From a virus (taxonomy: Duplodnaviria > Caudoviricetes): DNA of 33,543 nucleotides. Positions 1 through 16,803 of this stretch are shown piece by piece (positions within the stretch are counted from its first letter, which is position 1; every line of letters begins with the position of its first letter). The DNA is taken from positions 1 to 33,543 of the IMG/VR virus record IMGVR_UViG_3300032332_000629. One strand, written 5' to 3'. The translations under genes were made by a program, and so were the position numbers. The notes beneath the pieces are model-generated. The model was not told where the DNA came from, made no database searches, and saw only the letters and a list, made by a program, of their open reading frames with translations.

Positions 1-60
1 GGTTACGCGACCTCGTGAAGGATTTTAGGTGAAAGTTTTTTGCAACAGTTCCGCAGAACT

Positions 61-546
61 ATGCCCAAACCTGAGCCCGAACTGACCGCCATCGCCGAGG
101 CGCTCCAGATCGACGTTCGCACGCTTAGAAACTGGCGCAAACGCGACGGCTTCCCGCACGGACAGAACGCCGACGCGGTGAAAGCGTGGGCAGACCGGAA
201 CGGGCTGGGGCGCCTCAAGGACTCGACGCTTTCCGAACTCAAAGCCGAACTCATGCGCGAGCAAATTCGCCTCGCCCGCGCAAAGAACGAACGCGAAGCC
301 GGCGACGTGATTGACCGCGAAGTCGTCGAAGCGATGCTCGTGACCCTCGGCCAAAAGCTTGACCTGCTCCTTCGCCTCAAGCTGGAGGTCGAGCTAGGGC
401 CGCGCGTCGCCGGCAAGAACGCAGCCGAGGCGAACGTCGAGGGCGGGGAAATCCTGCAGGAGATCCGCGAAGTCATCAACGGCAACATCGCGAAGTTCCA
501 GGGTGATGCGCTGGCGCAGTCGCGGGAGGCGGATGCGATTGCTTGA
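61..546 (+). CDS. terS: Terminase small subunit (lambda Nu1-like)
   Basis: N-terminal HTH (IAEALQIDVRTLRNWRKRDGFP), then coiled coil and 'ARAKNEREAGDVIDREVV', typical of Nu1-like proteins; ATG at 61 preferred over the TTG at 40; GpA-like terL lies downstream. Confidence 0.85.
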   Translation: MPKPEPELTAIAEALQIDVRTLRNWRKRDGFPHGQNADAVKAWADRNGLGRLKDSTLSELKAELMREQIRLARAKNEREAGDVIDREVVEAMLVTLGQKLDLLLRLKLEVELGPRVAGKNAAEANVEGGEILQEIREVINGNIAKFQGDALAQSREADAIA

Positions 547-589
547 ATTAACTCTTGCAATCAATCAAGCGGTGTGAATGCTCTGACGC

Positions 590-796
590 ATGAACAACAC
601 CACCGCCGCCAAGGTTAAGACCCTATTCAACGCTATCGCCGCCAACTACCGCGCACGCGGTGATTCCCACCCCGAGGTGGCCGCCAAGTTTCAGGTCGAG
701 TTGGTTTTGCAGACCGCAAAAAGCCAGCCGATGTATATCAATCAGCTTCTCGATGAAGAAATCGAAGACACCCTCAAGGCGGGGCGGGCAGCATGA
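590..796 (+). CDS. Hypothetical protein (68 aa)
   Basis: ATG ORF with a TTGCAA -35-like box upstream (555-560); ATGA overlap with the next gene. Confidence 0.65.
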   Translation: MNNTTAAKVKTLFNAIAANYRARGDSHPEVAAKFQVELVLQTAKSQPMYINQLLDEEIEDTLKAGRAA

Positions 797-1173
797 GGGG
801 CGGCAAACGCCAAGGCGCAGGCCGCAAGCCGCTCCCGCCTGACCAGCGGGCCGTCGGCATCACGGTGCGCGTGCGCCCTGAAATCGCCGCACGCTTCGCT
901 GCATGGTGCACGCTGCGAGGCGTGAGCCAGTCGCGCGCGTTCTCGGCGTGGGTCAAACGCTCGTTGCGCGATCTGGTCGATGCGGTCCATCCAATTTCCC
1001 GCGAGTGCGGGGACAGTAGCTCAGACTGCGACCGCTACACTTCGCCGGTAAGTAAGAGCAACACCGGCACTATTTCTTCCCCGAACATCGGCAGTCAGCG
1101 AACCCGGCCCCTAGTATCCGACAACCAAAACGCCGAAGCGCCTACCACTGAGCCACGTCCGGGTTCGCTGTGA
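793..1173 (+). CDS. Ribbon-helix-helix-type small DNA-binding protein with a read-through C-terminal tail
   Basis: 'RGGKRQGAGRKP' motif, beta-strand 'ITVRV' and two helices; residues after about 60 look like an extension running into attC-like site 1. Confidence 0.65.
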   Translation: MRGGKRQGAGRKPLPPDQRAVGITVRVRPEIAARFAAWCTLRGVSQSRAFSAWVKRSLRDLVDAVHPISRECGDSSSDCDRYTSPVSKSNTGTISSPNIGSQRTRPLVSDNQNAEAPTTEPRPGSL

Positions 1174-1187
1174 TGCCTTGGTTCTCC
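1080..1187 (-). other. attC-like recombination site 1 (108 bp)
   Basis: + strand CCCGAAC-ATCGGCAGT-CAGCGAACCCGG...CCGGGTTCGCTG-TGATGCCTTG-GTTCTCC; 12-bp perfect inner stem; right spacer 10 nt rather than 9. Confidence 0.75.
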
Positions 1188-1212
1188 CTCTTCTTTTTCC
1201 CGTAAATCGCCC

Positions 1213-1722
1213 GTGTCCTCAACTCATCAACAATCACAACTAACTAATCACACTCGCGTGTGCTTCAGTCCTCTGTCTGTGGTGCCTTCGTTCTTTGAGG
1301 CTGACACTCAGGCCCCGGAATCGTCCTCACCGGACGGGAATAAATTTTCAACCGCGGAGGCCGTGGGCGAGCGCGCTGCGCTTATCCACGGCGCTGCGCC
1401 GGTCTGCCGCCGCGTCGTCGCGCTGCGCGACGATGGCCGATGGCTCTGCCTGAGCTGCGCGGAGCCGCACACGATCAAAGCGCCAAGCGGTCCGGGCGCA
1501 TACTCGCCGATGCGATACGCGCTCACGGAAAAGGCACGCCGCGAGCAACGCGTGCGCGCTGGCCTGTGCGCGGAGTGCAGCCAGCCGCGCGGCATCCACG
1601 GCAACGCCCGCCTCTGTGAAACGCACCGCGCCAAGTCGGCCGCTCGGAAGCGCCGGATGCGCGAGCGAGCGATGCACGCGATCCGCGATAACCTCTATGG
1701 CCACCGGGCCGACATACCATGA
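1213..1722 (+). CDS. Hypothetical Cys-rich basic protein (cassette A); true start uncertain, possibly ATG 1511
   Basis: CxxC motifs (CLSC, CAEC...LCETH) and basic tail; ATGA overlap with 1719; N-terminal half does not look protein-like. Confidence 0.45.
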   Translation: MSSTHQQSQLTNHTRVCFSPLSVVPSFFEADTQAPESSSPDGNKFSTAEAVGERAALIHGAAPVCRRVVALRDDGRWLCLSCAEPHTIKAPSGPGAYSPMRYALTEKARREQRVRAGLCAECSQPRGIHGNARLCETHRAKSAARKRRMRERAMHAIRDNLYGHRADIP

Positions 1723-2000
1723 TCGAACCGCAACAACTCATCCGGCGGCATGACCGCATCCGCGCCGTCTGGCAGCGCACGAAGTCAACTAACACGGCAG
1801 AGCGTTGCCGGCTACGCCTAGCCTCCATCGCGCGGGAGGCGCGCGAAAACTTTGACCACGCGCACGCGAGGGCAGTGGGTGCTCGTATGGTCCTCCGGCT
1901 GCCTGACGACCGTGCGCGTGTGTCCTCTTTGGCGAACGCCGGGGATGAGCCACGGCCGCTCGGGGCCGTTGGCTCTGGCCCCTCGTTCGAAAGGCCGTAG
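1719..2000 (+). CDS. Hypothetical protein (cassette A), C-terminus reads through attC-like site 2
   Basis: ATG ORF coupled to the upstream stop; ends LANAGDEPRPLGAVGSGPSFERP across the hairpin. Confidence 0.55.
   Translation: MIEPQQLIRRHDRIRAVWQRTKSTNTAERCRLRLASIAREARENFDHAHARAVGARMVLRLPDDRARVSSLANAGDEPRPLGAVGSGPSFERP
1931..1991 (-). other. attC-like recombination site 2 (61 bp, classic '59-base element' size)
   Basis: + strand GGCGAAC-GCCGGGGAT-GAGCCA-CGGCC-loop-GGCCG-T-TGGCTC-TGGCCCCTC-GTTCGAA: AAC-N9-stem...stem with extra T-N9-GTT, the layout of an attC bottom strand. Confidence 0.85.
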
Positions 2001-2016
2001 AAAATGCCCTCGTAAA

Positions 2017-2072
2017 TGTAACGCCACGACACACGATAAATCTTGCAAACACTGTAACGCTACGCCACAAAT
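2017..2072 (+). promoter_or_regulatory. Cassette B promoter with two operator-like repeats
   Basis: TGTAACGCCACGACACA (2017-2033) and TGTAACGCTACGCCACA (2053-2069), 15/17 identical imperfect palindromes, flanking TTGCAA (2043-2048). Confidence 0.6.
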
Positions 2073-2077
2073 AGGAC

Positions 2078-2551
2078 ATGGACACAACGACCACACAACG
2101 CAGGGCGAAAGCTGGCGGCGAATACGGCGCGAACGGCGACTGGTATGAGGGCGGGAAATTTATCGCCACGGAGGAAGACACCATCAAGCGCGCTCCCATG
2201 CGCCACGAGGTCACGCCCGAAGAGGCCGCGCGCCGCGCCGCCCGTGACGAGGAAAACCGCATCACCGCCGCGCGCGTGCAAGCGTGGCTGACCGAGCGCC
2301 GCGCCCGCTTCGCTGATGTAATCGCGCGCCTGACGGCCAATCCGGGGCATGACCCGAAGTGGTGGGCCGAACTGCTGGCCAACGGCCAAGCGGGATTTCA
2401 CGCCAGCCTCGGCGTGCAACTGCGCGACGGCGGATCGCTCTCGGCGCGGCAGGCCGAATACGTGGCGAAGGCGATTTTCGGGCGCTGCAACCGCAAGAAC
2501 GCCGAAGCGTGGGACGCGCTGGTGTCTGGTCTGGTGGAGGACTTCAAATGA
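2078..2551 (+). CDS. Hypothetical protein (cassette B)
   Basis: ATG with AGGAC upstream; 'RAKAGGEYGANGDWYEGGKFI' N-terminus and 'LSARQAEYVAK' C-terminal helix; coherent codon usage. Confidence 0.8.
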   Translation: MDTTTTQRRAKAGGEYGANGDWYEGGKFIATEEDTIKRAPMRHEVTPEEAARRAARDEENRITAARVQAWLTERRARFADVIARLTANPGHDPKWWAELLANGQAGFHASLGVQLRDGGSLSARQAEYVAKAIFGRCNRKNAEAWDALVSGLVEDFK

Positions 2552-2784
2552 CCGCCGCCGAATACAAGCGCCGCCGCGCCGCGCTCGGGCACACGCAGGC
2601 GACTCTCGCCAAGGTGCTCGGGCTCGCTCGCGGGACAATCGCCCGCCGCGAAACCGGCGCGCTCCCCATACCTACCGAAGCGGCGATTGCGCTTTCTTCG
2701 CTCCCGAAAACCAAGACGCGCCCGCATAGGCCGTCGAACGCCAGCGGTCAGCCACACCCGACCGAACACGATAAACCTCTATGA
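2548..2784 (+). CDS. XRE/Cro-like HTH regulator (cassette B)
   Basis: MTAAEYKRRRAALGHTQATLAKVLGLARGTIARRETGALPIP; ATGA overlap with the upstream gene; GGAGG upstream. Confidence 0.85.
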   Translation: MTAAEYKRRRAALGHTQATLAKVLGLARGTIARRETGALPIPTEAAIALSSLPKTKTRPHRPSNASGQPHPTEHDKPL

Positions 2785-2861
2785 GCACTCAACCCGACAG
2801 CGCACCAGCAGCGACCGCCAAAGCCCCGGACAAGGGTGTTGGCTGTGACGCTTTGTTAGCC
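2733..2861 (-). other. attC-like recombination site 3 (129 bp; loop holds ATG 2781)
   Basis: + strand GTCGAAC-GCCAGCGGT-CAGCCA-CACCC...GGGTG-T-TGGCTG-TGACGCTTT-GTTAGCC; N9 spacers on both sides and an extra T on the right arm. Confidence 0.85.
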
Positions 2862-3149
2862 TCCGATGGACACATCTACGAAATAAACCAAGGCTACTCT
2901 GGCATCTACATCATGCACCGGGATGGCACGGTGACGGGCTCGCCGCTGCCGTCCGAGCTTCAATTCTGGCAACAGGCGCAAGCGTATCGAGCGAAGCTCA
3001 AACACATCGTCGAAGTCATCGAGGCTCACGAAATCGAATCTCTTTCGTGCGACCGCGACGGCAACGAGTATTGCGACTGCCTGCGCCGCGCCGCCAAGGA
3101 CGCAAACCTTCTTCTGGCTAACGATAAAGCTCAGACACGAGCCGATTGA
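2781..3149 (+). CDS. Hypothetical protein (cassette C)
   Basis: Starts in the loop of site 3 and ends in the left arm/loop of site 4. Confidence 0.75.
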   Translation: MSTQPDSAPAATAKAPDKGVGCDALLASDGHIYEINQGYSGIYIMHRDGTVTGSPLPSELQFWQQAQAYRAKLKHIVEVIEAHEIESLSCDRDGNEYCDCLRRAAKDANLLLANDKAQTRAD

Positions 3150-3304
3150 ACGCAGAATCTTTCTATGAAAATCGAACCAATGCCAGAAGGCACCGGCGCA
3201 CTAATCGCGCGCATGGCTGCCGATGATCGTAAAGCCGCGAGCGCAAAAGCCATCGTCGAATCGCAGGCCCAGCAGGCTCGTTGTTCTGTGGCGCTGGGTT
3301 CGGC
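3116..3304 (-). other. attC-like recombination site 4 (189 bp; loop holds ATG 3165)
   Basis: + strand GGCTAAC-GATAAAGCT-CAGACA-CGAGCC...GGCTCG-T-TGTTCTG-TGGCGCTGG-GTTCGGC; N9 spacers, extra Ts on the right arm; loop longer than typical attC. Confidence 0.75.
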
Positions 3305-3548
3305 GTCTGAACTGCGAATCAGCGGAGAAAACGCCCGAATCATAATCGTGAATTGTCACGCCCTCATGCGCCACAAATTCCGCCGCACGCCGTTGTGGTC
3401 GATGGTCAGCCAAATCACCGGCCACGGCTCGGGCTACTCTTGGGAAATCTGCAAAAGTGCAAACCTCGATGGCGGTCAAAACTGTGGGGTCGAACGCCTC
3501 AAGGACTTTCCGCCGAACAAGGCAGATATGCCGACTTGCAGCAAATAA
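3165..3548 (+). CDS. Hypothetical protein (cassette D)
   Basis: Starts in the loop of site 4; core 'TPLWSMVSQITGHGSGYSWEICKSANLD'; ends across the terminal half-site. Confidence 0.75.
   Translation: MKIEPMPEGTGALIARMAADDRKAASAKAIVESQAQQARCSVALGSASELRISGENARIIIVNCHALMRHKFRRTPLWSMVSQITGHGSGYSWEICKSANLDGGQNCGVERLKDFPPNKADMPTCSK
3511..3535 (-). other. Terminal half-site (attI/attG-like simple site) bounding the array
   Basis: - strand GCATATC-TGCCTT-GTTCGGCG: L-like box, 6-nt spacer, GTT core; no partner hairpin arm seen downstream on +. Confidence 0.55.
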
Positions 3549-3557
3549 CGCCCGCTA

Positions 3558-3835
3558 ATGCTCGCCGCCCTCCTCCGCTACTCCCGCCGCGAACGCCGCG
3601 CCGTTGCCCAATCGTGGGCGCGGCGCTCGCACGCGACGCGGGCTGCTCGGCGCATGGAGCGCGGGCCGGATGCCGACACGCTCCGCCGTCGGGCATTGCA
3701 CGATGCGCGAGGCAAAGTGGTTCGCGAGGGCGTCACTTACCACAGAGACGGGCGCGGTTTCGCGCTTGGTGCAAGGGGCGCGGAATCAGTCAGAGCGAAG
3801 TGTTTTCCACTTTCGTTCTTCACCTTATCGCGTGA
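3558..3835 (+). pseudogene. Arg-rich ORF joined out of frame to a 3' fragment of an RHH paralog (3752-3835)
   Basis: ARFRAWCKGRGISQSEVFS matches ARFAAWCTLRGVSQSRAFS of 793-1173 at 13/19 positions but has no N-terminus. Confidence 0.5.
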
Positions 3836-3861
3836 CCGCGTCCGACAATCTTTTATTCCCA

Positions 3862-4053
3862 ATGAAAACCAACACACTACAAAATAAACTAGATCAAATT
3901 CAAAAGCTATTCGACGCCAAGTGCGACAAAAACGCCGAACTGGCATATCAAATAAAGAAGGCTCGTGACCTAACTGCGACTCACGCCGAGGAATACCCAA
4001 ACACATTTGCGCAACTCATGTTAGATTGGGCCAGAATAAATAAGAATCTTTGA
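3862..4053 (+). CDS. Hypothetical AT-rich helical protein (63 aa)
   Basis: ATG 3862 (MKTNTLQNKLDQ...); stop overlaps the terL TTG start. Confidence 0.65.
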   Translation: MKTNTLQNKLDQIQKLFDAKCDKNAELAYQIKKARDLTATHAEEYPNTFAQLMLDWARINKNL

Positions 4054-5840
4054 CCGCCTCCGACGCACTCCTCGCCAAGCTGCGCCTCCCGCAGCCCGAC
4101 CGCTCTCCGATCTACGAGTGGGCGCGGAAGCACATCACGCTCCCCGAGAGCTACGCAACGCCGGGGCCGTTCAACGCAAAGATCACGCCTTGGCTGATTC
4201 CGATCTTCGACGCGCTCCAGAATCCGCTAGTGCGCCGGGTGCATTTCCGCAAAGCCGTTCAAATCGGCGGCACGCTCGTGGCTGACATCTGGGTTCCGTG
4301 GCTCATCGCAAACGACGCGGGGCCGATTTCGTGGACGATGCAGACCGACGAAATGGTCGAGAAGCATTGCAAATCGCGCCTGAACCCACTGCTCGAACGG
4401 TGTAAGCCCGTCGCGTCGATGCTCCCGAAGCCGGGACCGAACCGGATGACTACCGAGATTTACTTCGGCGGATTCTTCCTCTCGCTCAACCCCGCGAATC
4501 TTTCGACGCAGCAGTCGCAGTCAATTCGTTACAAGGTAAACGACGAAATCTGGCTCCCGCGCTGGCAGGAGGTTTACGGTCACGCCGTCGCGCGCGTGTC
4601 GAAGTTTGAAGAGGTCGGGCGCTCGAAGATTTACAACGTGTCGCAAGCGCCCGAAATGTCCGCCGAGGTCGGCAACGTCGAAGATACGAGCTATCGCGCC
4701 GGCAATCAGCAGGAGTGGCACGCGCTTTGCCCGTCGTGCGGCAAGGCTCATCCCGTGACGTTCTCGCAGCCTTCGATCGACGACAAGGAAACGCGCGGCG
4801 GAGTCGTCTGGGACCGCACAGCGAAGCGGGACGACGAGACGTGGGACGTTGCGCGAGCGGTCGAGAGCACGCGCTTTCGCTGTATTCACTGCGGTCACGA
4901 GTCGCCGGACAACGACGCGACGCGCAACCATTGGCGCAAGACCGGGCATTACATCGCGCAACGAGAGGACGCGCCGGCGGAGATCCAGAGTTTTCGCATC
5001 GAGGCACTCGTGGCGCGCCCGATGAAGATGCTCGTGGAGGAGTTTTGCGAGGCCGAGAACCAATGGGCGAAGCGCGGCGAGGACCGCATGAAGATGGAGT
5101 TTCGCACGAAGCGCGAAGCCAAGCCGTGGATCGTCGAAAAGAAGACGGTCAATCTCTTTGTGCAGTCGAGCGGCTACAAGCTGGCTGACCACGCGCAAGG
5201 CCAAGCCATCGAGAACGAGGCAATCCGCTTCATGACCATTGACCGGCAGCTCGATCACTGGTGGGTCGAGATCGGCGCCTTCGCAACCAATGGCGGCACG
5301 CGCTACCGACAGCTGCACTTCGGGCGCATTGACACGCGCGACCAACTGCGCGCGCTTCAACTGCGCTACAAGGTCGCCGACGCGTGCGTTGCGCAGGACC
5401 GCGGCTATCGTCCGAGCGACGTTGACCGCGACTGCGCCGACTTTGGGTGGCGCTCAATGCGAGGCCACGCGCGGAAGACCTGGACAATGCGCGACGACGC
5501 GACGGGCAAGCTGATTAACTTCCCGTTTTCCGATCCGCAGGTCAGTGACTACCGCGGCGGTGACGTTTACTTCTACAACTGGAGCGGCGACTACTTCAAG
5601 GACGTGCTCCAGACCGCGCTTGAGGGCAAAGGCGACTTGAAATGGGAGCTGCCCGACGACGTGAACCCGCTGTATTTGCAGCACCTCAAAGGCGAATCCA
5701 AAGTCGAGGTTCGCGCGGGCGTTTGGGAGTGGCGCGAAGTCAAAAGCAACGCCGCAAATCACGGTCTCGACACGTCGGCCATGATGCTATGTATCGCGAC
5801 GATTGCAGGCGTCGTGCGCTACGTTCCTGCGACGGCGTAG
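4050..5840 (+). CDS. terL: Terminase large subunit (lambda GpA family)
   Basis: 'IYEWA...PGPF...TPW', Walker A-like 'RKAVQIGGT', Walker B 'YKVNDE', CPSCG/CIHCG zinc motifs, C-terminal 'NHGLD' nuclease motif. Confidence 0.93.
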   Translation: MTASDALLAKLRLPQPDRSPIYEWARKHITLPESYATPGPFNAKITPWLIPIFDALQNPLVRRVHFRKAVQIGGTLVADIWVPWLIANDAGPISWTMQTDEMVEKHCKSRLNPLLERCKPVASMLPKPGPNRMTTEIYFGGFFLSLNPANLSTQQSQSIRYKVNDEIWLPRWQEVYGHAVARVSKFEEVGRSKIYNVSQAPEMSAEVGNVEDTSYRAGNQQEWHALCPSCGKAHPVTFSQPSIDDKETRGGVVWDRTAKRDDETWDVARAVESTRFRCIHCGHESPDNDATRNHWRKTGHYIAQREDAPAEIQSFRIEALVARPMKMLVEEFCEAENQWAKRGEDRMKMEFRTKREAKPWIVEKKTVNLFVQSSGYKLADHAQGQAIENEAIRFMTIDRQLDHWWVEIGAFATNGGTRYRQLHFGRIDTRDQLRALQLRYKVADACVAQDRGYRPSDVDRDCADFGWRSMRGHARKTWTMRDDATGKLINFPFSDPQVSDYRGGDVYFYNWSGDYFKDVLQTALEGKGDLKWELPDDVNPLYLQHLKGESKVEVRAGVWEWREVKSNAANHGLDTSAMMLCIATIAGVVRYVPATA

Positions 5841-7971: not shown

Positions 7972-8253
7972 ATGGACGAAACAACGACAAAGACGGTGAA
8001 CCTTTCGTGCGTCGAACTCGTCGCCGAGAAGACCGGCGAACTCAACGGGCGCGTCGGCAAGATCGAGCACGACCTCGGCACGCAGACCGCCGCGCTTGAC
8101 GCTGCCGTCGTCGCGCTCAACGCCGGCATTGAAGCGGTCGGCCTACTTCGCTCCAATGTGCTCCGCAACGACCTTGTGCAGTGGAAGCACGCAATGTCGG
8201 CGCGCGTCGCCAACCTCGAACTCGCCCTCGAAAAACTCAACTCAACGAAATGA
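7972..8253 (+). CDS. Coiled-coil protein, paralog of the N-terminus of the next gene
   Basis: ELVAEKTGELNGRVGKIEHDLGTQT versus ELVAEKAGELNDRVGKIENELGAQT (20/25). Confidence 0.75.
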   Translation: MDETTTKTVNLSCVELVAEKTGELNGRVGKIEHDLGTQTAALDAAVVALNAGIEAVGLLRSNVLRNDLVQWKHAMSARVANLELALEKLNSTK

Positions 8254-10304
8254 AACACAACGACCCGCAGAACATCGAACAGAACTTTGACGAGCTTGAG
8301 CTTGTCGCCGAAAAAGCGGGCGAGCTAAACGACCGCGTTGGCAAGATTGAGAATGAGCTGGGCGCGCAGACCAAAACGCTCGAAAGCGCCGCAATGGTCC
8401 TAGACGCCGCGATCAAAGGGCTTGGCGCGCTGAAGCATCAGGTTCTGGAGAACGACATTGGCGCGCTCCAACTCGCGCTCAATGACAAGACCGCACATCT
8501 CGCGCGCGAGATCGGCCGCTTCGAGTCTGCCGTTGCCGAGATTGATCGCCGCGCGGAAGCAGGCGACGAACAGCTTGCCACCTCGCTTCGCGACATTGCG
8601 CTCGGGCTACGTTCGTCGTTTGACGCGAAGTCCGCCGAGATTGCTGAGTGGTCCGCACGCGTAGAACGCGAGATTGCCGCTCATTCCGTCGCATTAGCGG
8701 CCATTCCTCCCGTCATCAAGGGTGCAGACGCCAAGCCGTTTAACCCGCGCGGGGAATGGCAAGCGGGCATGGTCGCAAACTCGCTCGACGTGGTCAGCTA
8801 CAACGGGTCGAGCTACATCAGCAACGTGGACGGCAACACCGACAAACCGTCGCGCTCGGACAAATACACCGTGCTCGCGAAACGCTCGGGTAATGGCGCG
8901 GGCGGCGCGACGGACTTCGGTAGTCTCACCGGCACGATTCTACCTGCGCAGGTTGTTCCCGGCGCGGCGACCTACGCAGTCGGCGACGTGCTTTACGCCG
9001 GAACGACGGGCGCGCTTTCCAAGCTCGGAGCGGGCAGTTCCGGCCAACTTCTCAGCACGCAGGGCGCGGGCGCCGCGCCCATCTGGGTCACGGCAACGGG
9101 CGGCGCCGGCGACATGAATGGGCCGGCAAGCGCGACCGACAACGCCGTCGCGCGCTTCGACGGCACGGGCGGCAAGACGGTGCAGAACTCGACCGTGACG
9201 ATTTCAGACACGGGCGACATTACCGCAGCCGGCAAGCTCTTCACGGCTGACGGCACGAACGCGGCGCCTGCGATTGCAATCGCGAGCAGCACGGGGACGG
9301 GACTTTATCTCGACGCCGCGAACACGCTCGGCGTTGCAACGGGCGGCAACGGCACGGTGACATTTTCGACCGCGAGCGGAGTAGCCAACATCACGGGTCA
9401 CGGGGTGCGCTCGCTCACCATCACCGGCGGCAGCTCGGGCGCGTCGTTGGTTCTGGGTCAGGGTGCTACGGCAGGAAATGCGACGATCACGCCAACAGGA
9501 ACCGGCGTCGTAGCCATCGCGGGCACGGGCAGCAAACTGACTATCGCGGGCACCACGGCAGCAACTTCAACGACGACGGGAGCCTTTCAAGTTGCAGGTG
9601 GCGCAGGTATTGCGGGGGCAATTTTTGGCGGAAGCACCGCGTCATTCGCGCCAACGCTTACCACTAGCGGAGCAATTGGATTGAGCGTTTCTCCTTCAAT
9701 GACGCCTCTCGCTGCCAATCTTTATGGCGCTCGCGTGCAAGCTACGGTCGCCAGTGGTGCATCGTCTGGCGGAACAGTATCGGCAATGAATGCGAGCACG
9801 ACGAACAACGGCACAACCAACATTGCCGACGTTGAAAACTTTACATCCACCGTGAATCAGTCGGCCACGAGCGGAACATTGACTAATGTCATGGGTTTTA
9901 AGTCTACGCTTGCGCTTTTGAACAGTGGAAATGTTTCGAGTTTCTACGGTTTTCGAGCAGGCGATGCGTTTGCCAGCAGCACCGGCACATTGGCCAATCA
10001 ATACGCCTTTTACGTAGATGCGTTGAGCCGTGGAACGGTGAGCAATTATGCGTTCTATTCAGCGGGTGCGGGTAAATTCCAAATCAGTGACACTACCTCC
10101 GCCTCCTCCAGCACCACCGGCGCACTCACTGTCGGCAACGGTTCAGCGGCGACCAACGTAGCAATCGGCGGCGGCAACATTAACGCGGGCGGCACCGTAG
10201 CAATCGGAAACACGGTAGCCGCTGCCGTCTCGGTCGCGTCTACCCACAAGGTCACAATGGTAATCGGTGGCGTGACCTACTATCTTCTCGCCAGCAACGT
10301 ATAA
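8250..10304 (+). CDS. Virion fibre protein (coiled coil, CBM-like module, Gly/Thr/Ala-rich shaft)
   Basis: ATG 8250 overlapping the upstream stop; 'RGEWQAG...DVVSYNGSSY' and 'DNAVARFDGTGGK' fibre motifs; C-terminal 'THKVTMVIGGVTYYLLA'. Confidence 0.8.
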   Translation: MKHNDPQNIEQNFDELELVAEKAGELNDRVGKIENELGAQTKTLESAAMVLDAAIKGLGALKHQVLENDIGALQLALNDKTAHLAREIGRFESAVAEIDRRAEAGDEQLATSLRDIALGLRSSFDAKSAEIAEWSARVEREIAAHSVALAAIPPVIKGADAKPFNPRGEWQAGMVANSLDVVSYNGSSYISNVDGNTDKPSRSDKYTVLAKRSGNGAGGATDFGSLTGTILPAQVVPGAATYAVGDVLYAGTTGALSKLGAGSSGQLLSTQGAGAAPIWVTATGGAGDMNGPASATDNAVARFDGTGGKTVQNSTVTISDTGDITAAGKLFTADGTNAAPAIAIASSTGTGLYLDAANTLGVATGGNGTVTFSTASGVANITGHGVRSLTITGGSSGASLVLGQGATAGNATITPTGTGVVAIAGTGSKLTIAGTTAATSTTTGAFQVAGGAGIAGAIFGGSTASFAPTLTTSGAIGLSVSPSMTPLAANLYGARVQATVASGASSGGTVSAMNASTTNNGTTNIADVENFTSTVNQSATSGTLTNVMGFKSTLALLNSGNVSSFYGFRAGDAFASSTGTLANQYAFYVDALSRGTVSNYAFYSAGAGKFQISDTTSASSSTTGALTVGNGSAATNVAIGGGNINAGGTVAIGNTVAAAVSVASTHKVTMVIGGVTYYLLASNV

Positions 10305-14485: not shown

Positions 14486-16186
14486 ATGCCTCGAATCTCA
14501 TTGTGCGTAATCTGCGGGAACGAATCCGAGCACATCGCCGCAATGCTCAAATCGTTCGCGCCGTGCTTCGATGAACTCTCGCTCGTGCGAGCAATCGGCA
14601 AGCGCGAGCCGGACGACACGATGGAGCTCGCTGAAGTTTGGTGCGAAGCGAACGGCAAAACTTTTCTGCGCGCCGAGTATCGCAACGGATTCGCGGCGCG
14701 CGATTGGGACCACGTCGATTCGTTCGGTGCGGCGCGCAATCAGGCATTCCGGCAGGCAACGGGCGACTGGCTGATTTGGGCCGACTGCGACGACACATCG
14801 GAAGGCGCGGAAAAACTGCGCGACGATCTCGGCGCAATTCCCGCAGACGTCTCAATGGTGCGCTACGCCTACGACGTGCGCGGGAGCGGGAAAAAGCTTA
14901 TGAGGGAGCGAGCGATTCGCTCGGCAGCGTTTCGCGATGGGCGCGTCTGGCATCATGCCGTGCACGAAAACCTTTTGATTCTTCCCGGCGACAAGCACGA
15001 GGACCGGCACGCGTGCGTCTGGGTTCACTCGCCGAAGACCGTAAAGCGCGAGAACCGTCGGCGAAATCTGCGCATCCTCGGCAACAGCGTGATCGAGTGC
15101 GCAACGCAGTATTTTTACATCCACCAAGAGCACTATTGCAACCAGGACAAGCAGGCCGCGGAACAGTTCGGCAAACTCGCGCTGGGCTTCCCTAACCTGC
15201 AACCGTCGTTTCGATACGAGACGCTTCTCAACCTCGCGCGCATCTGCGGCAATTATCGCGAGGCGATGACGTATTGCATGGAAGCGCACGGCATCTTCCC
15301 GTGGTGCCGCGAGGCCATCGCCGCAATGATTCTCCTTCACTTCGAGAAACGCGACGCTCGGCGCGCGACATGGTGGGCCGACCGTATGCTCGAACTTCGC
15401 GAGCCAAGCGAAGCGGAAAGGCCGTGGACGCATGAGGCGAAGTATTACGGATGGGCCGGCTTCGACATTGCGGCTCGAGCGCACCGCATGGCGGAAAACG
15501 CGAACAAGGCGAGCGAGCTTCAACGCAAGTTTCACGCGGGAGTGACGCCGACGATTTCGCTGATTCACGCGACGCGCGGTCGCTCAACGAAGGCGGTCGG
15601 ATGCCGCGAGTCTTGGATGAACACGGCGGCAAATCCTTGGAACGTCGAGCACGTCTTCGCGGTGGATTCCGACGACAAGGAAAGCGCGCAAATGTCGAAG
15701 CAGTTTGTGAGCGTGCGCAGTGAGAAAAGGTCGTGCGTCGCGGCGTGGAATCTCGCGGCAAAGGCGGCGCGCGGAGATTTAATTGTGCAGCTTTCCGACG
15801 ACTGGTTACCTTCACCGAACTGGGACCTGAAGTTGCTGGACCTCGTGAAAGGACGCGACCTCGCGCGCGAGCAAATCGTGATCGCGGTAAACGACGGTCA
15901 TCGGCGCGATGACCTGCTCTGCATGGCGATTCTTTCCCGCGCTCGGCTTGAGGCGCAGGGCGAGCTTTTCTTCGACGGCTACGAATCCGTTTTCAGTGAC
16001 AACGAGTTTTCGGTGCGCGCGTTTGCCGACGGTGTCGTGGTCGATGCGCGCGACCGCATCACGTTTGAGCACGTCCATCCGGCATTCGGGAAAGCGCCGA
16101 TGGATAAAACCTACGAGCACAACAATTCAAGCGAACGCTACAGGGCCGGCAAGGCGTTGTTCGACGCTCGCAACCCATCAAAATGA
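14486..16186 (+). CDS. Double glycosyltransferase (GT-A/GT2, TPR-like linker, GT-A)
   Basis: 'ISLCVICGNE', 'FGAARNQAFRQATGDWLIWADCDD'; helical repeats; second domain 'ISLIHATRGR...AAWNLAAKAARGDLIVQLSDD'. Confidence 0.9.
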   Translation: MPRISLCVICGNESEHIAAMLKSFAPCFDELSLVRAIGKREPDDTMELAEVWCEANGKTFLRAEYRNGFAARDWDHVDSFGAARNQAFRQATGDWLIWADCDDTSEGAEKLRDDLGAIPADVSMVRYAYDVRGSGKKLMRERAIRSAAFRDGRVWHHAVHENLLILPGDKHEDRHACVWVHSPKTVKRENRRRNLRILGNSVIECATQYFYIHQEHYCNQDKQAAEQFGKLALGFPNLQPSFRYETLLNLARICGNYREAMTYCMEAHGIFPWCREAIAAMILLHFEKRDARRATWWADRMLELREPSEAERPWTHEAKYYGWAGFDIAARAHRMAENANKASELQRKFHAGVTPTISLIHATRGRSTKAVGCRESWMNTAANPWNVEHVFAVDSDDKESAQMSKQFVSVRSEKRSCVAAWNLAAKAARGDLIVQLSDDWLPSPNWDLKLLDLVKGRDLAREQIVIAVNDGHRRDDLLCMAILSRARLEAQGELFFDGYESVFSDNEFSVRAFADGVVVDARDRITFEHVHPAFGKAPMDKTYEHNNSSERYRAGKALFDARNPSK

Positions 16187-16803
16187 CACATCACGAAGGA
16201 TACCAAATATGCAAAGAAACGGGCGCGCTGAAATCAATCAGTCGCGAGATTACGGCGCACTACGACCACGCCTACGTTGCGCGATACGAGAATTATCCGC
16301 AGGCGGAACTTTCAAGGATTCGCGCCGAAATCGTGATGAAGCACGCAGGCAAATTCGAGAACATTTGCGACGTAGGATTCGGCACGGGCGCCTTCCTTTC
16401 CGAGATCGGCCACCGGAACCCGATGGCAACGCTTCACGGCTTTGACGTGTCGCCCTACCCGCCGCCGCACTTCGTGCGAATCGAGCCTAGCTGGCAGGAA
16501 AAGGAATGGGACGTTGTGACGTTCTTTGACTCGCTGGAGCACTTTGTGGACTTGCCCAAGATTCACGCGAAATTCGTAGTCGTTTCCGTTCCATGGTATG
16601 ACGGCATGGCCGACGAGAAATGGTTTTCCGAATGGAAGCATCGACGCCCGGGCGAGCATCTCTGGCATTTCAACTCGGTTTCGCTTTCGCTCGTATTTCA
16701 GCGCATGGGAATGCGCGAAGTCTACTGCGGCAATCCCGAGGACGCGATTCGCAAGGGCGACGGCAAGCGGCCGAACATCCTGACGGCGGTGTTCGCTCGA
16801 TGA
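16183..16803 (+). CDS. Class I SAM-dependent methyltransferase
   Basis: 'ICDVGFGTGAFL', 'DVVTFFDSLEH', 'EHLWHF'. Confidence 0.9.
   Translation: MTHHEGYQICKETGALKSISREITAHYDHAYVARYENYPQAELSRIRAEIVMKHAGKFENICDVGFGTGAFLSEIGHRNPMATLHGFDVSPYPPPHFVRIEPSWQEKEWDVVTFFDSLEHFVDLPKIHAKFVVVSVPWYDGMADEKWFSEWKHRRPGEHLWHFNSVSLSLVFQRMGMREVYCGNPEDAIRKGDGKRPNILTAVFAR

Follow-up and report, generated by a model that had tools for sequence, protein, structure and literature searches.

A probable integron cassette array with a fixed attI-like docking site between the terminase genes of a siphophage

The viral record IMGVR_UViG_3300032332_000629 (G000) is a linear siphophage contig of 33.5 kb with an estimated completeness of 90%, and the whole of it forms the window analysed here. 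Between its terminase genes, terS and terL, lies what is very probably a phage integron cassette array, consisting of four cassettes bounded by attC sites and a fixed attI-like docking site, with no integrase found in the genome; the cassettes are likely shuffled in trans by the integron integrase (IntI) of the host, likely a member of the Opitutaceae, or of a co-resident phage. By definition the array is a CALIN, a cluster of attC sites lacking an integrase, with an attI, as there are at least two attC sites within a few kb and intI is not nearby. Of the parts of a complete integron, G000 has a candidate attI at the head of the array, recognised as a fixed insertion point with no hairpin, and has no intI beside it. 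What sets the array apart is the layout, with antisense genes, a fixed phase and the attI at the head. A six-frame search of G000 for tyrosine (PF00589) or serine (PF00239) recombinases returned nothing at E 0.1, and no integrase was found among the PHROG matches for 51 open reading frames (ORFs) chosen out of the 197 listed at 60 aa or longer, in agreement with an earlier note on this DNA, made from the letters alone, that had no integrase in view.

That note had described four imperfect palindromes with the layout AAC...GTT as an integron-like array. Their positions and layout are as it gave them, and on the sequence evidence we assign all four as attC sites. Each is an imperfect hairpin between AAC and GTT cores, with the central spacer unpaired and extrahelical bases in one of the arms. 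On the + strand these extra bases fall in the right arm, which identifies + as the bottom strand, the one expected to recombine, and AA|C as the crossover, following the parts of PMC2727003 (Bouvier et al. 2009) that describe strand choice. Site 1 lies at 1080..1187 (+, bottom strand; crossover AA|C 1085|1086). Site 2 (1931..1991, +) measures 53 nt from AAC to GTT, and its central 33 nt are identical at 32/33 positions to a host chromosomal attC in L153. Site 3 (2733..2861, +) holds the start codon of the cassette 3 gene (2781) in its loop, and site 4 (3116..3304, +), with 181 nt from AAC to GTT, codes for the N-terminal 45 residues of the cassette 4 product. When the full 33.5 kb was scanned for AAC...GTT hairpins, these sites ranked as the top four on the + strand (scores 11, 8.5, 8.5 and 8; next 7). 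Dinucleotide shuffling of 900-4100, where all four lie, gave 0.10 sites on average and never more than 3 in 1000 rounds, a lenient control given that the scan was devised with the sites in view. An independent test was for this reason built from host attC sites. The resulting covariance model, R1, was made only from 30 attC sites in arrays beside intI in Opitutaceae genomes; across the host set its structure shows 91% pairing, and 14/17 pairs have changes on both sides. R1 matched all four sites, on the + strand only, at 23.8 bits (E 1.3e-4), 44.6 bits (E 3.7e-10), 48.8 bits (E 2.7e-11) and 24.8 bits (E 7e-5) for sites 1 to 4, with the next match at E 0.61, and so the covariance check that had been proposed came out in favour of every palindrome. 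Folded freely as single strands, sites 1 and 2 form the attC hairpin (z -2.3 and -3.7). The observation that each GTT core pairs better with the AAC of the next site than with its own was likewise reproduced, with 3, 3, 4 and 4 of the 4 variable bases complementary to the next site and 1, 2, 2 and 2 within the site itself.

The predicted unit lengths of 851, 802, 383 and 396 bp were borne out. Cassette 1 (1086..1936, +; 851 bp) carries ORFs 1213-1722 and 1719-2000. Cassette 2 (1937..2738, +; 802 bp) carries ORF 2078-2551, with no named function, and a helix-turn-helix (HTH) gene at 2548-2784 (HTH_3, E 8e-7), which alone in the window cargo has a clear family in Pfam; no relative of the cassette 2 gene was found among the viral contigs searched. 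In cassette 3 (2739..3121, +; 383 bp) the ORF 2781-3149 takes its stop codon from site 4, and in cassette 4 (3122..3517, +; 396 bp) the final 10 codons and the stop of ORF 3165-3548 are provided by the docking site. The usual layout, in which the ORF lies on the top strand and ends ahead of its own attC, is not found here: in all 4 cassettes the genes are on the attC bottom strand, in the same direction as terS and terL. As genes run across each junction in a fixed frame, with AAC read as Asn in 5/5 junction-crossing genes, their tails come from the next site. Given this direction, a Pc promoter at attI would be of no use to the window genes, and a scan of 1-4100 for sigma-70-type promoters gave no match.

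The array ends at a hairpin-free, attI-like docking site (3511..3548, +; crossover AA|C 3517|3518). The last core reported earlier (3511-3518) does pair with the core of site 4, but it has no hairpin partner and is attI-like, not a fifth attC. Two relatives with terL genes 98% identical, L001 and L002, match the window rightwards from the AAC at 3516 and have unrelated cassettes to the left. A motif search for the docking site gave 4 viral and 12 metagenome loci; L098, an AT-rich pattern match with no covariance-model match, was dropped as a chance hit, leaving 16 loci including the window. L001, L002, L082 and L083 came from protein searches and are independent of the motif. Upstream of the site, 14 different flanks occur among the 16 loci. 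Compared with the window, the 12 positions ahead of AAC score 2-9 of 13 identities, and positions 24-35, which lie beyond the search pattern, mostly 8-13 of 13. Up to about 11 cassettes stand ahead of the docking site, and L096 has no attC in the available 1.2 kb before it. In six of the loci the site does not adjoin a terL of the window type, which suggests that the module moves between phage types. By these comparisons the AAC at 3516 is taken to mark a conserved, fixed attI-like docking site. In two further phage arrays the docking sites (L176:6628 and L181:7104) appear much like host attI, and L171 (G539, 70 kb) has the longest array seen, with 14 attC followed by a docking-site variant and ORF110, a small gene described below.

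Breakpoints in relatives had been predicted to fall at the AAC triplets, and they do so exactly (L001/L002, L095/L097, runs X2 and X5, and the docking loci). L097 and L095 have a common 1,045-bp block, 98% identical and ending at AAC, after which L095 has two extra cassettes (786 bp) before the docking site. A contig of sequencing run X5 follows the window over 1380-1937 (cassette 1) and then continues into another attC-like left arm. Contigs of runs X2 and X4 match 2000-2739 (cassette 2), and past 2739 the X2 contig enters an attI-like platform with a variant docking site like that of L104. The new neighbours of cassettes 1 and 2 in these other samples are thus joined at AA|C, and whole units are gained or lost at the crossover (L095 vs L097; runs X2 and X5). 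The docking and array module is itself patchy, being absent at 92-95% terL identity (L004, L005, L006, L010) and present at 76% (L088). Together with the covariance-model matches, these breakpoints support the integron-like reading of the array, which from the comparison of sequences appears to be actively varying.

Counts across arrays were made on a cassette list in which 11 of the sites came from the hairpin scan, not the covariance model, and at least two sites were missed (L099, L092); the two cassettes of L097 were left out of the core, strand and phase counts as duplicates of those of L095. The R'' core matches the core closing the same cassette at a mean of 3.69 of the 4 variable bases, with 55/71 phage cassettes perfect, against a mean of 2.25 and 7/71 perfect for its own left core, where 10,000 permutations gave 1.98 (maximum 2.39). 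The longest ORF lies on the bottom strand in 42/53 cassettes of intI-less phage arrays and 16/18 of intI-bearing ones vs 7/48 in hosts, and in 47/64 of a second sample of viral records picked by attC first, from which L165, L173 and L177 were left out as duplicates. Genes crossing a junction read AAC as Asn in 25/26 and 11/11 cases in relatives and in 24/26 in the attC-first set, and 28/42 bottom-strand cassette genes have their start codon inside attC. Among 74 cargo ORFs of relatives there are 5 DNA methyltransferases and one each of a Mom-like protein, a PAPS-reductase-like protein and an RNA ligase; the rest comprise 4 in unnamed PHROGs and 62 without a match. One viral array, L166 (G535), has homogeneous attC sites with ordinary gene orientation and is likely a captured piece of a host integron. 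In a host array (L146:12978-14005, oriented) one cassette is repeated in tandem adjoining attI.

Which enzyme would act on these sites? In the host and phage integrons examined intI is encoded by the strand that is the bottom one for attC, and the side on which it lies corresponds to the side of the docking site in the window array. A search of species genomes for ORF110 returned a sole locus, L106, in a phage-like contig from the metagenome-assembled genome (MAG) of a member of the Opitutaceae. Here (L106:182-3001) five attC of the window kind and an attI are followed by a 343-aa IntI (TIGR02249, 313 bits; cut-off 265), the end of whose gene overlaps an ORF110 remnant. The L106 integron has inverted cassettes, and its neighbours are an SSB-like gene and one that encodes 3,215 aa. 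IntI above the cut-off is found in 66/151 genomes of the Opitutaceae, the family of G006. A short intI occupies the slot beside attI in five phage or prophage-like records (L106, L111-L113, L187), and in a tree a single branch (100/99) separates these five IntIs from 30 host IntIs, although branches are long and the host sample holds best-scoring matches only. The viral contigs L187 (171-2439), L188 and L111-L113 encode IntIs of about 320 aa within about 50 bp of attI; these do not have the N-terminal extension of about 130 residues of most Opitutaceae chromosomal IntIs, and stand apart in the tree. Among the host intI genes L114-L142, most chromosomal Opitutaceae IntIs have 420-530 aa, with the extra N-terminal region. 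In 20 viral records picked by attC alone intI is present in 2, and in 1/6 near-complete ones. G001, an array-bearing phage genome of 95% completeness with the same docking site, has no PF00589 tyrosine recombinase. As arrays with and without intI coexist, the simplest reading is that IntI is supplied in trans by the host or a helper phage, and from sequence comparison this is likely the enzyme used.

The position of intI is taken in the window by ORF110 (3558..3887, +), a small conserved gene for 109 residues. ORF110 proteins are 104-113 residues long, with 213 homologs and, at 50%, 174 clusters. The gene stands, whole or truncated, after the docking site in every motif locus but the one chance match. 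It occurs in 5/23 further viral records, and in each of the 4 distinct attC-first loci with this gene its place is the attI end; among bacterial genomes it is present in 1/401 (the L106 remnant). Identity of the window copy to relatives stops near 3781 and its C-terminal third differs; the gene is truncated or altered also in L001, L090, L097 and L101. The window has about 270 bp (3780-4050) that are not in L002 or L003 and replace the end of ORF110, with a short AT-rich ORF at 3862-4053. The predicted model is confident (pLDDT 91.7), with two helices, four strands and one helix. No Pfam family and no usable Atlas match was found for ORF110, and Foldseek searches of PDB and BFVD with the model gave nothing at E<=0.001. 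Its best VIA match has Z 3.9; the PC4/Pur-like single-stranded DNA-binding fold (5a4n: Z 3.5, root-mean-square deviation 3.2, 52 aligned) is tied with unrelated rows. Comparison with host IntI by hhalign gave no likeness (probability 0.2%). Being often damaged and missing from many arrays, ORF110 is probably not the recombinase.

It could still be a working part of the system: within a two-component phage integron, this small basic protein might bind the hairpins or bring IntI to the phage docking site. Its constant place after the docking site, its many homologs, its confident model and its occurrence in one of 401 bacterial genomes would suit such a role, yet the lesions in the window and four other loci, its presence in 0/6 near-complete records and the lack of likeness to host IntI make us regard this as unlikely. 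A different account is that the array is a relic, whose ancestor had intI in the ORF110 slot and whose cassettes now shift solely through homologous recombination, with shared attC arms and the conserved docking sequence as its substrates. The intI of L106, lying in that slot and overlapping the ORF110 remnant, the RecT-like and exonuclease VIII genes of the phage and the patchy distribution of the module agree with it. We nevertheless consider it quite improbable, because the breakpoints fall at AAC between neighbours with only a few common bases, the complementarity of R'' and R' is retained in 55/71 cassettes, and 5/6 near-complete viral records picked by the attC motif are without intI, suggesting a stable state and not a recent loss.

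The missing tenth of a linear genome could conceivably hold the phage's own recombinase, as some array-bearing phages do carry intI. This we find very hard to credit, since the phage intI genes examined lie within about 50 bp of attI, a slot that is filled here by ORF110, and G001, with the same docking site, has none. That the hairpins are no more than translation or transcription signals between small genes, with no recombination, is scarcely believable: starts inside attC in 28/42 bottom-strand genes, and stops in the next site, would be expected of such signals, which leave unexplained the match to host-type attC, the core complementarity to the next site and the exact swaps at AAC.

Several observations weigh against our reading of the array as one shuffled in trans by a host or helper-phage IntI. 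Given the split in the tree, a host enzyme may not be the one used; the assignment of the host is founded on one MAG contig and on attC likeness, and with 10% of G000 missing a phage recombinase may lie there. No circle junction was found in contigs of one set of four sequencing runs, in a search of contigs only. Few whole cassettes recur between arrays, and reordering of the same cassette is for this reason seen in a handful of cases only. The viral array L166 has the ordinary gene orientation (4/5). A phase test independent of ORF calls found the longest open phase to be the one reading AAC as Asn at 65/71 phage vs 25/48 host junctions, but a T before AAC puts TAA in one phase and so biases this test, in hosts and phages alike. 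Scored with a host attI matrix from 14 rule-picked host candidates, some of which may be wrong, the docking site ranks 29 of 998 AAC sites with a negative score, which suggests a modest likeness to host attI. Finally, the folding gave a mixed picture: sites 1 and 2 take the attC hairpin, but for sites 3 and 4, with long loops, it is not the minimum-energy fold (z +0.6 and +1.0); by this prediction the latter two may recombine poorly.

In the mechanism we propose, IntI would cut out a circular cassette by attC x attC recombination and place it at the docking site by attC x attI, from which it follows that the newest cassette would adjoin the terL end. Transcription would enter the array from the far (terS) end and not from a Pc promoter, and the fixed phase would let any gene be completed by the site that comes after it, which lends a short tail and a stop codon. 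The cargo would be a pool of phage accessory genes, including DNA methyltransferases that may counter host restriction, and ORF110 a linked passenger or accessory, not the recombinase.

The cassette 4 protein may offer a view of where cassettes come from. It is modular: of 25 homologs, 7 have in common with it only the leader (the first 45 residues), placed on unrelated bodies, and 17/25 only the body (from about residue 35-50), with other leaders or none. The tails past the junction Asn are variable. Near-identical attC sites (91% and 88%) occur on unrelated bodies, with identity ending at GTT or a few bases past it, and the cassette 2 body is found with a different attC in run X2. Modular proteins and re-used attC sites would fit a process in which attC modules and gene bodies are fused at R''. 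The phase of GTT counts against this, as it is not locked (phases 0, 1 and 2 in 11, 21 and 14 genes) and gives no support to R'' as a routine second swap point, which we rejected; so does the rarity of R'' recombination for wild-type sites, in the portions of PMC2727003 that treat it. Capture of ordinary genes might be seen in the leaderless homologs, 7 proteins of 70-83 residues, although these may still be cassettes. It is possible, if on balance doubtful, that phages of Verrucomicrobiota run an integron economy of their own, in which an attC module providing ribosome site, start codon and leader peptide is joined to an ordinary phage gene body at R'' and closed at R', by short phage-lineage IntIs or a hijacked host IntI, with ORF110 as an accessory. 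The arrays would then be a natural record of cassette genesis, holding the same gene with varied attC leaders and tails, or with no leader. To our knowledge, how genes acquire attC sites is an open question in the field, and the modular cassette 4 protein would give a handle on it.

Elsewhere in the window, PHROG names cover terS, terL, portal, capsid, tail, RecT-like, exonuclease VIII, RusA and replication proteins. No Rfam family matched the window at gathering thresholds, no terminal repeats were found at the lengths tried, and GenBank phages gave no match to the array DNA and none to ORF110. The array is flanked on the left by terS (61..546, +; phrog_57, E 2.9e-10) and on the right by terL (4050..5840, +; phrog_15, E 2.5e-42). 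After terS come a 68-aa ORF (590..796, +; no PHROG or Pfam match), the first of a two-gene module also present in array-less relatives, and a small basic ORF (MRGGKRQGAGRKP...; 793..1173, +), likely DNA-binding. The latter stands at the distal limit of the array, and its frame runs on through site 1, whose AAC it translates as Asn. It may be ribbon-helix-helix (RHH)-like; no profile matched it. Identity to L095 and L097 stops at 968, and 969..1085 (no strand assigned) is likely the remnant of an older distal cassette with no attC left. Positions 547-970 and 2040-2784 hold similar modules, each an AT-rich leader, a small gene and a small DNA-binding gene; array-less relatives have the first again in their terS-terL gap, and the second lies inside cassette 2. 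Among 80 terL loci this gap measures 0-2.8 kb, with a covariance-model match in L001 and L002 only. We therefore rejected the idea that the interval is special because of attC; throughout this phage family it acts as a hotspot for insertions in general, in most cases with no attC. Further on, a 707-aa ORF (8181-10304) with portal and head protease genes on either side has no PHROG or Pfam match, and glycosyltransferase and methyltransferase genes at 14486-16803, with capsid and tail genes on either side, possibly serve virion or host surface modification.

What these observations suggest is a phage that uses the integron mechanism as a standing platform for swapping genes of its own, without carrying the enzyme. 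Its antisense genes, phase-locked crossover and borrowed tails are the textbook cassette inverted. Host integrons are reportedly stocks of anti-phage genes (bioRxiv 10.1101/2024.07.02.601686), and as a counterpart integron chemistry appears to shuffle phage genes, methyltransferases among them. The docking site, the cassettes and candidate enzymes (a host IntI, or the phage IntI of L106 or L187) are now identified.

The earlier note had placed such arrays mainly on chromosomes and plasmids, a view that needs qualifying since phage attC clusters are already published: in its main text, PMC9892861 (Qi 2023) reports 17 CALINs in 10,705 phage genomes, seen there as rare captures. In the same account IntI1 recombined 5/6 tested attC sites of other phages with attI1 in vivo. 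Those CALINs resemble the window array in having attC without intI and methyltransferase cargo, and one, in a Shewanella prophage, has an attI. The main text makes no mention of Verrucomicrobia, antisense genes, a fixed phase or, among related phages, turnover of cassettes at a fixed site, but the supplement may list orientations. The open-licence literature searched yielded no account of phage arrays that combine antisense genes, a locked phase and a fixed attI, although other papers or that supplement could hold one.

The sedentary chromosomal integrons of Opitutaceae are like the window array in attC style, geometry, strand relation to the attI end and core complementarity. They differ in having genes on the top strand (41/48), an intI with a longer N-terminus at about 500 bp from attI, and attC sites homogeneous within an array, whereas phage attC are diverse. 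In the canonical IntI system, as portions of PMC2727003 set it out, strand choice orients genes for expression from Pc; the window genes run opposite and would be read from the distal end, and the first extrahelical base, by comparison with the sites described there, is often T in phage attC. The docking site can also be likened to attG sites, at which, according to parts of a preprint (bioRxiv 10.1101/2022.09.11.507474), IntI inserts outside attC and attI, at a short GWT core, and can excise nearby. An attG, however, is a random genomic site, whereas the phage site is one conserved 33-bp element, re-used in at least 14 arrays.

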